Origin: Barthelona sp. PCE
Taxonomy: Eukaryota
Assembly (NCBI GenBank): GCA_040285745.1
Contig: JAUFOR010000008.1
Location: forward strand, 1,550,001 to 1,614,000
Direction of reading: 5' to 3'
DNA length: 64,000 nucleotides
Below the pieces are notes generated by a model. That model saw only the letters and a list, made by a program, of their open reading frames with translations, was not told the DNA's origin and did not search any database. Positions 1-59,701 of this stretch are shown piece after piece; position 1 is the first letter of the stretch, and every line of letters begins with the position of its first letter. The position numbers and the translations under genes are program-made.

Positions 1-261
1 TAACTTGTAAGCAAAGTTCAACATAGTTAAGAATTTCGTGCGTTTCTGTAGACGATCGCATTTCTGCTTACACAAATCGATTTCACTTTGATCCACACCC
101 TCATCGGTGTACAGGGCCACCATTAGCTCGTCAGCTTGTTTCTTAAGAGTGACTGCATTGTTTTTAGAGTGTTTTAAAACTAGTGCAATTACCTTACCCA
201 CAATGAATTGGATTAAGTACAGCCCAATTGCCCAGGCGCAGAAAGAAATCTCAGAGTGCAT
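1..261 (-). CDS. Partial CDS running off the window start; N-terminal TM segment followed by a coiled coil (Get1/TMCO1-like layout, tentative)
   Basis: Not in the ORF track. Manual translation from ATG 261 is open to base 1: MHSEISFCAWAIGLYLIQFIVGKVIALVLKHSKNNAVTLKKQADELMVALYTDEGVDQSEIDLCKQKCDRLQKRTKFLTMLNFAYKL. Confidence 0.5.
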   Translation of the reverse strand, partial: MHSEISFCAWAIGLYLIQFIVGKVIALVLKHSKNNAVTLKKQADELMVALYTDEGVDQSEIDLCKQKCDRLQKRTKFLTMLNFAYKL

Positions 262-441
262 ATATTCGGTTGATTTGAACGTGATGAAGGGGAAATTGAG
301 GCAAACAAGGATAGATCTTCTTAATACCTATTTGTGGACACATTCCATACAATATGTTGTTAAACACTCGATAATTGAGCTATGGTACGTGGATTGAACA
401 TTATTTGAACCGTAAACATACATCTTACTCTTCTCAACGCT

Positions 442-51783: not shown

Positions 51784-52504
51784 TGTATGGCTTTTAACAA
51801 AATGTGATGAAGAAGCTAGCTATAGCCTGAATGAATATACACATATCCATTAATCTCTTTCAGACTTTTTACTGTTGTATGCAAACGTATATAACAGAAC
51901 AAAACGGAGTAAATATAAATTGTAATGATACAATACTGATAAATTCCCAATAATCAACATTTTCTCTTAATTTGCAATAAAGCAATTCTCTTTCAACGAA
52001 GCACGTACCATCATCAACATGGAAAACCTCAGTAGAGAATAAATAGGGGCCCAATCACAATCTTCGTGACTAATTCAATGTAGAATGGCAAACCCAAACG
52101 GAAAGACGTGGAAATACACCGGCAACGTTCTCTTCCCAACTATGCATTGAGCAACTGAAAATCCTACTACTCAGACGTGCGGCCTCCAGACTCTGAAAAT
52201 GCTAACTGTATGCTACATATACAATATCCATCTCAAATCTCAAAAAGAATCCTTGCCCCGCTTACCACTCATTAATACGGATAAGCTATAAAGAGAAACA
52301 GGTTAAAAAAGTGTTTACAAGCAGGAAAAAAGGGTTCTTTTTTTTCTGTTCAAATACCATGTTTCTGTTCAATTTATTTGGGATTTCATTGAGCAGAAAC
52401 CACGAATATGATACTAAAATGGACGAAATAGCACTTCTCCCCAAAAAAAGGGTAGTTTAGAGTGAAATCATATTATTTTTATTGGTTGGTTTCTGCATTC
52501 TATT

Positions 52505-52577
52505 ACCAACGTGGCGGAATGGCTAACGCGACAGTCTTAAGATCTGTTTTTCGCAGGTTCGATTCCTGTCGTTGGTA
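52505..52577 (+). tRNA. tRNA-Leu(UAA), atypical (5-nt variable loop)
   Basis: ACCAACG/CGTTGGT+A; D loop with GG; ACAGT-CTTAAGA-TCTGT; GCAGG-TTCGATT-CCTGT; T-run downstream. Confidence 0.85.
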
Positions 52578-52658
52578 CTTTTTTTCCTCTTCTTTTTTCC
52601 CACAACTCAACCAACAAACAACAACAAAAACATCAATCAATCAAAAGCCAAAAATGAA

Positions 52659-52730
52659 TATCCTAGGTAAGAATCGAACTCACGACCTTTTGATTAGAAG
52701 TCAAATACACTTCCGCTGTGTTACTAGGAC
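52659..52730 (-). tRNA. tRNA-Arg(UCU)
   Basis: GTCCTAG/CTAGGAT; TTTGA-CTTCTAA-TCAAA; GTTCGATT. Confidence 0.93.
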
Positions 52731-52809
52731 AACAATATCGGAAATCATCAACAAGAAGAAAGGTAATTAGCTAAATATACTATGATGTTGTTGAAAAAAG
52801 ATATCAAAA

Positions 52810-52881
52810 AGTGGTTACCGAGATTTGAACTCGGGACCCATAGATTTGCAATCTATTGCTCTACCCCTGAGCTATAACCAC
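52810..52881 (-). tRNA. tRNA-Cys(GCA)
   Basis: GTGGTTA/TAACCAC+T; ATAGA-TTGCAAA-TCTAT; GTTCAAAT. Confidence 0.95.
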
Positions 52882-52965
52882 TGCTACTGCCGGAAATTAC
52901 TCAATGAATACAACTAATGCTCATCTATATTCATTGTTTTCTAATGTTGGACAAAAACAATATAG

Positions 52966-53040
52966 CATCCCAACAGGGAATCGAACCCTGGACCCCATGA
53001 TTAAAAGTCATGTGCTACTACCAAACTGAGCTATTGAGAC
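52966..53040 (-). tRNA. tRNA-Lys(UUU)
   Basis: GTCTCAA/TTGGGAT+G; CATGA-CTTTTAA-TCATG; one extra T in the D arm (TAGTAGC). Confidence 0.92.
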
Positions 53041-53112
53041 ATATCGGAAAACAACAATACATTTAATTAAAACTTTATAATTTTTGAACGTCTCTGCTTT
53101 AATTGTCAAAAA

Positions 53113-53183
53113 TACACCCGGGGGGAATCGAACCCCCGGCACATGGATGGCAACCATGAGTTTTACCACTAAACTACAGGCGT
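53113..53183 (-). tRNA. tRNA-Gly(GCC)
   Basis: ACGCCTG/CGGGTGT+A; CATGG-TTGCCAT-CCATG; GGGGG-TTCGATT-CCCCC. Confidence 0.93.
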
Positions 53184-53268
53184 ATGTTTGTACGGAAAAT
53201 TAACTAAAATATTTTAAATTGACATACATATTGATACAATTATTTGTGTTGGTCAAAAATTGTTAGTT

Positions 53269-53340
53269 GGTCCCAACTGGGAATTGAACCCAGGACCTTT
53301 CCCACCCTAAGGGAACGAGATACCACTACACCATTGGGAC
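53269..53340 (-). tRNA. tRNA-Pro(AGG)
   Basis: GTCCCAA/TTGGGAC+C; TTCCC-TTAGGGT-GGGAA; GTTCAATT. Confidence 0.93.
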
Positions 53341-53606: not shown

Positions 53607-53844
53607 AAAAATTTATACTGAAGTAGGTTTATTGACGTCGGGGAACGCTCACGTGGGAAGGCTCGCCTTCACGTGTAGAGGGTGTTTCGTCCGGGAAGTG
53701 GCCTAAAACCCTTTTTTTTTGAAAAAGGTAAGAAAAACCGTATCGGGTCCTACGGACACCTACTACACATGACGGTTCGCTTCGTCCCCCTCCGCTGTTT
53801 ACTACCTCAAGTATAAAGTCTGAAGGCTAGCGCCTGTATGTCAC
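53607..53844 (-). ncRNA. Unidentified ~240-nt rod-shaped structured RNA candidate
   Basis: GC-rich island in AT-rich DNA; five nested long-range helices with G-U pairs only on the minus strand; TTTTCG upstream and T5 downstream. Confidence 0.6.
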
Positions 53845-54058
53845 CGAAAATTTAAAAATGGGTATAACAGCAAAACAAAAAATTATCATGTGTTGAGCGG
53901 AATAGCTTTGCTATACAGGGAAATACCAACCCGAGCAGACCTTATTCTGGTTTTCTGATTCTAATTCAATGTCTATGTTATTCATAGAAGGATAATGTTT
54001 ACAGTATGACAGATGACCCTTCTTATAAAAATATTTTTTTTATTCAAATTTTTTGTGT

Positions 54059-56647: not shown

Positions 56648-59701
<3,054 letters not shown>

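Follow-up and report, generated by a model that had tools for sequence, protein, structure and literature searches.

A tRNA-Leu(UAA) gene without the long variable arm in Barthelona: possible use of a class I-shaped leucine tRNA in a nuclear-cytosolic system

Introduction

Can a leucine tRNA that has lost its long variable arm serve cytosolic translation in a eukaryote, or is a gene for such a tRNA merely a relic of one that did? This question is raised by a gene with a UAA anticodon that lies in a 64-kb stretch of DNA from Barthelona sp. PCE. The whole of this stretch, hereafter called the window, was analyzed for the anatomy and descent of the gene, for its genomic setting and transcription signals, and for the use of the codon that it would read.

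Barthelona sp. PCE is a metamonad with a genome of 10.2 Mbp, which the available text of the genome paper describes as the smallest among known free-living eukaryotes; according to the same text, the assembly was made from Nanopore R9.5 reads with Illumina error correction at 308x (PMC11316075). The term "tRNA" has 0 occurrences in the main text of that paper (PMC11316075), and in the five of its six supplementary files that contain text the single tRNA-related match is an expression row for TyrRS.

Results

A class I cloverleaf with a UAA anticodon

The gene was recognized by two tools (Table 1). ARAGORN predicts a tRNA-Leu(taa) at 52505-52578, and the Rfam model RF00005 matches 52505-52577 over its full length (model positions 1-71 of 71) with 62.5 bits, compared with a gathering score of 29; this value falls inside the range of 52.8-71.3 bits obtained for the five neighboring tRNAs. 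The acceptor stem forms Watson-Crick pairs at seven of seven positions, and the D arm, as aligned by Infernal, consists of G10-C25, C11-G24, and G12-C23 together with G13/A22. The anticodon loop CTTAAGA provides U33, the UAA anticodon, G37, and A38. The T stem is built from a G49-U65 wobble and four Watson-Crick pairs and carries the T loop TTCGATT, and the discriminator is A73. In the place between the anticodon and T stems that a variable stem-loop of over 10 nt would occupy in a class II tRNA, the gene has a variable loop of 5 nt, which is the class I length.

All the invariant nucleotides considered (U8, A14, G18G19, U33, T54, U55, C56, and A58) are kept, as are the leucine determinants A73, G37, A35, and the elbow of G18G19 and the T loop. 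Broken stems and loss of invariant nucleotides, the usual marks of a pseudogene, were not found: the 21 stem pairs of the gene all pair except 31-39, and U31-U39 is the sole pair flagged by Infernal. The original prediction, a 73-nt cloverleaf with a Leu-type D arm, G37, A73, and a TTTTC variable loop, is thereby borne out by the sequence, ARAGORN, and Rfam, together with the perfect acceptor stem, the U31-U39 mismatch, and the internal run of five T residues (T5) that it had listed. The T arm, which it had called intact, does pair fully, but with one G-U wobble it is partly non-Watson-Crick. The minimum free energy fold of the bare sequence is not the cloverleaf, but since the same is true of all five neighbors, this is uninformative about the gene. 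In energy, its cloverleaf exceeds the minimum by 3.1 kcal/mol, compared with 0.4-4.9 kcal/mol for the neighbors.

Table 1. Features of the leucine tRNA gene and of the adjoining tRNA genes, in window coordinates
Feature	Position	Strand	Basis
tRNA gene, 73 nt, anticodon UAA, class I cloverleaf	52505..52577	+	ARAGORN, Rfam RF00005, alignment to class II references
Anticodon TAA, positions 34-36, with U33 before and G37 A38 after	52538..52540	+	Sequence, ARAGORN (anticodon at 34)
Variable loop TTTTC, positions 44-48	52548..52552	+	Single alignment gap versus references; Infernal alignment
Internal T5 (U43 and U44-U47), then C; could act as a Pol III terminator	52547..52551	+	Sequence
T7, presumed Pol III terminator, starting 2 nt after the discriminator	52579..52585	+	Sequence
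TTTCTG, one mismatch to TTTCCG, 9 nt upstream of +1 of the leucine tRNA gene	52490..52495	+	Sequence
Five neighboring tRNA genes, standard for local promoter and terminator	52659..53340	-	ARAGORN, Rfam
tRNA-Arg(UCU)	52659-52730	-	ARAGORN, Rfam
tRNA-Cys(GCA)	52810-52881	-	ARAGORN, Rfam
tRNA-Lys(UUU)	52966-53040	-	ARAGORN, Rfam
tRNA-Gly(GCC)	53113-53183	-	ARAGORN, Rfam
tRNA-Pro(AGG)	53269-53340	-	ARAGORN, Rfam
TTTCCG, preceding each of the five neighbors by 4-13 nt	52739-44, 52891-96, 53045-50, 53193-98, 53354-59	-	Motif search
First downstream T-run of the neighbors, exact T5, then G	52650-54, 52806-10, 52953-57, 53108-12, 53255-59	-	Sequence

Genomic setting

The gene stands at the end of a cluster of six tRNA genes, of which the other five lie on the minus strand and are convergent with it. 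The window is gene-dense and includes genes for a REV3-type DNA polymerase, SNF2, Arf, SGT1, TBCC, E2F/DP, RPAP3, phosphatidylserine synthase (PSS), RuvBL2, and cathepsin; for the PSS of the window, no relative exceeds 34% identity. These neighbors (in particular REV3, SNF2, Arf, E2F/DP, RuvBL2, and PSS) are eukaryotic, and the contig that bears the gene is 2,170,504 bp long, so the gene is nuclear, as had been proposed. To our knowledge, metamonad organelles have no genome and no translation, and an organellar role for the tRNA is therefore not expected. Its flanks are unique sequence.

Neither ARAGORN nor Rfam found a second Leu(UAA) gene in the 64-kb window, and no LeuRS gene is encoded there. 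Very compact genomes carry few pseudogenes and few redundant tRNA copies, so that nonfunctional or duplicated tRNA genes are expected to be rare in a genome of such extreme compactness. Gene structure in the window is mostly simple: the RuvBL2 gene (58249-59698, plus strand) has two exons, 58249-~58500 and ~58535-59698, around an intron of ~35 nt, unlike most other genes of the window, which are single open reading frames (ORFs).

Descent from a class II tRNA-Leu(UAA)

Public collections were scanned with a motif made up of the D loop TGGCNGANTGG, the anticodon loop CTTAAGA, and the T loop GGTTCGA, in which only the spacing between the anticodon loop and the T loop was varied. With class II spacing, the scan returned at least 120 loci in viral_contigs, and the 30 of these that were run through ARAGORN were all predicted as tRNA-Leu(taa) of 81-88 nt. 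As references we used at least 120 class II genes, each with at least six acceptor pairs, of which 94 were unique among the matches listed. The references (L009-L128) are eukaryote-type tRNA-Leu(UAA) from viral contigs, mostly giant-virus MAG; since they are viral and were picked by a pattern modeled on the window tRNA, the conservation figures given below depend on that choice of pattern.

All 73 nt of the gene can be aligned with the 94 unique references among the matches listed, and its identity to the ten closest of these matches is 67-71%. The alignment to the matches listed contains a single gap, of 8-11 nt, placed exactly at the variable arm of the references. Given this end-to-end alignment interrupted once, at the arm, we take it as established, at the level of sequence comparison, that the gene is a descendant of a tRNA-Leu(UAA) from which the arm was excised. 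A different tRNA that had gained a UAA anticodon was ruled out by the same full-length alignment.

The gene and the class II references are alike in the D arm, the CTTAAGA loop with G37, the T loop, and A73, the last being present in 93 of 94 references among the matches listed; with one reference (L054), the gene also shares ACCA...TGGTA acceptor ends. Unlike the references, it has no arm, carries A15 for G15, has the pairs 12-23 and 51-63 swapped, and contains the internal T5. Seventeen reference columns were at least 90% conserved among the matches listed and not fixed by the pattern, and the gene deviates at six of them. Five of the six deviations preserve pairing. Four of these are compensated on both sides of a stem (C12-G23 to G12-C23 and G51-C63 to A51-U63), and in the fifth, the C of column 65, found in 92 of 94 references among the matches listed, is replaced by U, so that the pair 49-65 is now G-U. 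The remaining deviation is A15, where 94 of 94 references among the matches listed have G15. As C48 is retained, the G15-C48 tertiary pair usual in eukaryote-type class II leucine tRNAs is lost. The U31-U39 mismatch had been considered a sign of decay, but this view does not hold: the 31-39 pair is noncanonical in 38 of the 94 references among the matches listed (A-C in 32 and U-U in 6), and U-U at this place is thus within the normal variation of Leu(UAA).

Rarity of short-armed tRNA-Leu(UAA) in public collections

With class I spacing, the same motif scan gave 0 matches in viral_contigs and 0 matches in 185,579 prokaryote genomes, on which grounds a viral or prokaryotic origin of the gene was rejected. 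Eight loci were returned from 241 million metagenome records; the arm-less form of tRNA-Leu(UAA) is rare. These loci were considered as relatives of the window tRNA and rejected, as 0 of 8 are related to Barthelona. In three of them (L004, L005, and L007), the match coincides with a tRNA-Leu(taa) predicted by ARAGORN, which assigns the match in L003 to tRNA-Lys(ctt) and gives no tRNA prediction for L001, L002, L006, and L008.

The L004 locus (238-309, plus strand) holds a tRNA of Leu(UAA) type whose acceptor ends are ACCA...TGGTA and in which part of the variable arm and of the T stem is gone; we presume that it resembles animal tRNA-Leu. Like the window gene, it is of Leu(UAA) type, has a shortened arm region, and is still predicted by ARAGORN, but it is without part of the T stem, whereas the window gene keeps both flanking stems and a 5-nt loop. 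Judged by its sequence, L004 looks like a decayed copy and an example of an arm-deletion pseudogene.

The two other predicted loci, L005 (117-189) and L007 (215-288), both on the minus strand, are short-armed tRNA-Leu(taa) of 73-74 nt within tRNA clusters. They are like the window gene in length (73-74 nt), in the UAA anticodon, G37, and A73, and in sharing the D-loop motif, and L007 is 71% identical to the window tRNA by a count from the alignment, a likeness that is largely forced because of the search pattern. The spacers between their genes, unlike those in the window, are only 3-4 nt. L007 also carries a 77-nt tRNA-Leu(tag), an 86-nt bacterial-type long tRNA-Tyr, and an ORF matching phrog_16275. 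The tRNA-Tyr and this ORF make a phage or bacterial source of L005 and L007 likely, and the two are probably phage-borne class I-like leucine tRNAs.

Promoter and terminator signals of the tRNA cluster

The internal promoter of the gene appears whole. In the Infernal alignment, the A box is TGGCGGAATGG at positions 8-18 and the B box is GGTTCGATTCC at 52-62, and both are intact when compared with what we take to be the consensus sequences of these boxes.

The five neighbors served as the local standard for signals outside the genes. Upstream of each of them lies an exact TTTCCG. This hexamer occurs in 24 copies in the whole window, counting both strands, and at that frequency the probability of five chance placements would be of the order of 1e-13. 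The corresponding site of the leucine tRNA gene has the modal spacing of 9 nt, the same as at the Gly and Cys genes, and reads TTTCTG, against exact TTTCCG in five of five neighbors. The first T-run downstream of each neighbor is T5 followed by G. Among the exact T5 runs of the window, 81 of 227 are followed by G, so that five of five would be expected by chance with a probability of ~0.006. We regard TTTCCG and T5G as candidate Pol III upstream (start-site) and terminator signals of this metamonad; no description of either signal was found in the literature examined.

Several other short sequences were seen near these signals. The Arg and Lys genes have in common an upstream element of 17 nt (52735-52751 and 53041-53057) that is 88% identical between them. 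Upstream of the leucine tRNA gene, (G)TTTCTG occurs three more times, at 52361-52367 (plus strand), at 52394-52400 (minus strand), and in a direct repeat, TTTCTGTTCAA, at ~52345 and 52362. The stretch 52452-52467 was considered as a relic of the 5' part of a tRNA-Gly and set aside, as the match is only 16 nt at 81% and may be due to chance. The extra TTTCTG copies and the Gly-like stretch (52345-52495) may be remnants of earlier tRNA genes or may match by chance.

Inside the leucine tRNA gene, the T5 is as long as the first terminators of the neighbors, which is to say that the gene is not free of internal T-runs of terminator length. An internal T5 is found in 0 of 94 references among the matches listed, and an internal T4 is found in two of the 94. 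The run lies directly 3' of the anticodon hairpin. In budding yeast, according to the available text of PMC9278858, T5 is the minimal Pol III terminator, the strength of a T-tract depends on its flanking sequence, and a hairpin just upstream of a weak T-tract boosts termination (PMC9278858). The concern that the run might act as a Pol III terminator, already part of the original prediction, is a serious one, given that in five of five neighbors the T-run met first downstream is an exact T5. Because the internal T5 would be abolished by any substitution in the loop, its persistence calls for an explanation. Braglia et al. are said to have described weak T5 contexts in 2005. If the G belongs to the terminator signal in Barthelona, read-through of T5C would be possible. 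Downstream of the gene, the T7 is followed by a T6 at 52593-52598 (plus strand).

A GC-rich island at 53640-53860 (minus strand) stands out in the AT-rich spacer; the palindrome CACGTG occurs in it twice, and two T5C runs lie at its end. The part at 53738-53852 (minus strand) was considered as a Pol III gene terminated by T5C and rejected, because it gave no fold signal (z of +0.49) and no Rfam match at E values up to 1. The island is probably promoter sequence of a neighboring gene.

Decoding of UUA in the window

Among the 16,145 codons of 31 ORFs are 1,574 leucine codons, 243 of which are TTA (15.1 per 1,000 codons). The A-ending leucine codons are underused in these 31 ORFs (TTA at 15% and CTA at 8% of leucine codons), and their stop codons are TAA in 24, TAG in 6, and TGA in 1.

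At the TTA codons that could be placed against homologues, leucine is the leading residue. It is the top homologue residue, with a frequency of 0.82, at the two TTA codons of RuvBL2 and also, at 0.38, at the six TTA codons of PSS, where CTN codons gave 0.21-0.37. Pairwise BLAST of SNF2 places one TTA codon opposite Leu in 141 of 148 homologues and the other in a variable column; these are the only two TTA among the 55 leucine codons of the SNF2 core, and TTA is scarce in conserved columns. Phe reaches at most 0.06 in the TTA columns examined. The ten TTA codons, a small sample, fit standard decoding of TTA as Leu, and the sequences thus agree with the earlier view that TTA is read normally in the window. 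We know of no anticodon other than UAA that reads UUA in eukaryotes, and on this basis at least one functional gene of this type must be present in the genome.

Discussion

Charging of leucine tRNAs without the arm

According to the available text of a review, neither the anticodon nor the arm of tRNA-Leu is crucial in E. coli; minimal or arm-less variants with A73 and the contacts of the D loop with the T loop accept leucine in E. coli and H. sapiens; in yeast, the determinants that are strong in vivo are G18, m1G37, psi55, and A73; and sequence-specific recognition of the arm is confined to Archaea (PMC9976931). From these last limits and from the charged minimal variants, it follows, as far as that text goes, that loss of the arm need not require new LeuRS rules. 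The original prediction had offered either changed recognition rules or a recent deletion pseudogene; its premise of Leu(UAA) descent stands, but new LeuRS rules are not necessarily needed in light of the available text of PMC9976931.

A natural case is described in the available text on Streptomyces coelicolor, in which one LeuRS charges a type I tRNA-Leu(CAA) as well as type II tRNA-Leu (PMC6614811). Like the window gene, this tRNA is short-armed, and it shares its compartment with an ordinary LeuRS (Fan et al. 2019, PMC6614811). It is unlike the window gene in being bacterial, in having a CAA anticodon, and in being recognized without A73, by way of a leucine-specific domain that is specific to Streptomyces (PMC6614811). 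The available text of PMC6614811 reports no eukaryotic case of a type I tRNA-Leu. Animal mitochondrial tRNA-Leu(UUR) resembles the window gene in its UAA anticodon, its short variable loop, and its A73, which is a determinant; it is described as tolerating mismatches in the anticodon stem (available text of PMC9976931). It is, on the other hand, organellar, is served by a separate mitochondrial LeuRS, and has noncanonical D and T loops, in contrast to the canonical G18G19 and TTCGATT loops, of nuclear eukaryotic type, of the window tRNA. No eukaryotic cytosolic short-armed tRNA-Leu was found in literature searches, and none is described in the available text of PMC9976931. Taken together, the variants covered by the review and the S. 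coelicolor case make it plausible that a eukaryotic LeuRS could charge a tRNA-Leu lacking the arm.

An active gene and its alternatives

The reading that we favor, with a probability of roughly 0.45, is that the gene is an active one for a class I-shaped cytosolic tRNA-Leu(UAA) descended from class II by excision of the arm. An ordinary class II tRNA-Leu(UAA) would have lost its long variable arm by excision, which would have left a canonical 5-nt loop. Transcription would be driven from within the gene by its intact A and B boxes; Pol III would pass the internal T5, which is followed by C, as opposed to the G at the local terminators, and would stop at the T7 directly after the gene. The product would fold as a class I L-shape, would be leucylated by the cytosolic LeuRS through A73, G37, A35, and the elbow of G18G19 and the T loop with no need of an arm, and would decode UUA, and also UUG, in translation. 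This scheme starts from features that are directly observed, namely, the anatomy of the gene, its Leu(UAA) descent, its maintained pairing, and the promoter and terminator signals seen locally, and it draws support from the exactness of the excision down to 5 nt, the retention of pairing, the intact promoter and identity elements, and the compactness of the genome. Also in its favor are the Rfam score and the cloverleaf energy, both within the ranges of the neighbors, the T7 close behind the gene, the match at five of six letters to the upstream motif, the use of TTA in the window, and the C after the internal T5 in place of the G of the local terminators. What speaks against activity is the internal T5 next to a hairpin, A15, the mismatch in TTTCTG, and the lack of precedent.

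The same points could also be accounted for by a young deletion pseudogene, an explanation that we consider a strong contender, though short of an even chance. One of at least two Leu(UAA) copies would have lost its arm in a single deletion and be decaying slowly; the T-rich junction would have created an internal Pol III terminator, and a canonical class II copy elsewhere would serve UUA. Such an origin would explain why the internal T5 equals the T5 terminators of five of five neighbors and occurs in none of the 94 references among the matches listed, and also why three one-sided transitions (G15 to A, C65 to U, and TTTCCG to TTTCTG) fall at conserved features. That arm deletions happen as decay is illustrated by L004, TTA is scarce in well-conserved columns (2 of 55 leucine codons in the SNF2 core), and a cytosolic class I tRNA-Leu is undescribed in eukaryotes, both in our literature searches and in the available text of PMC9976931. 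Less easily reconciled with decay is the fact that exactly 5 nt are left between untouched flanking stems, which few random deletions would give, and that, leaving aside 31-39, which normally varies, all 21 stem pairs hold. The A and B boxes are likewise intact, as are the T7 terminator and the identity elements. A genome of 10.2 Mbp, the size given in the available text of PMC11316075, is expected to carry few pseudogenes or duplicate tRNA genes. The 64 kb around the gene, moreover, hold no second Leu(UAA) gene.

Two further explanations seem to us very improbable. Homopolymers are a weak spot of Nanopore R9.5 chemistry, and Nanopore errors are typically homopolymer indels of 1-2 nt. A normal arm could have been lost from the Nanopore-based consensus during assembly or polishing, and the anomaly does end in a homopolymer of an R9.5 assembly (PMC11316075, available text), but the assembly was corrected with Illumina reads at 308x (PMC11316075, available text), the loss of ~10 nt from a hairpin is atypical of Nanopore errors, and the flanks are unique sequence. 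Equally slight is the chance that the gene is kept for something other than leucine, be it another synthetase, a binding site for TFIIIC and Pol III, or a source of 5' fragments. Because of its class I shape and its A35, A36, and A73, the obvious mischarging risk is PheRS; the B box is intact, and the internal T5 could yield a defined RNA of ~47 nt. The determinants of yeast PheRS, however, include G34 and G20, and the wobble G34 is replaced here by U; the TTA columns match Leu rather than Phe, whose frequency does not exceed 0.06 in those examined; and nothing in the window suggests a boundary or small-RNA function.

Implications for leucine tRNA recognition and Pol III termination

Should the gene prove to be a pseudogene, it would be an ordinary relic of minor interest. 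Our wider proposal, which we advance tentatively and at somewhat less than even odds, is that a class I-shaped tRNA-Leu(UAA) is in use in Barthelona and may be the sole decoder of UUA there. If this is true, Barthelona would be the first eukaryote in which an arm-less tRNA serves as a substrate of the cytosolic LeuRS, and the class II architecture of tRNA-Leu, which is held to be universal outside animal mitochondria, would be dispensable in a nuclear-cytosolic system. As a corollary, the Pol III of the Barthelona lineage would terminate at T5 followed by G and read through T5C. The gene would then offer a natural experiment on how LeuRS recognizes its substrates, on the enzymes that tell Leu from Ser tRNAs, on how far the tRNA core tolerates loss of the arm, and on what Pol III requires of a terminator.
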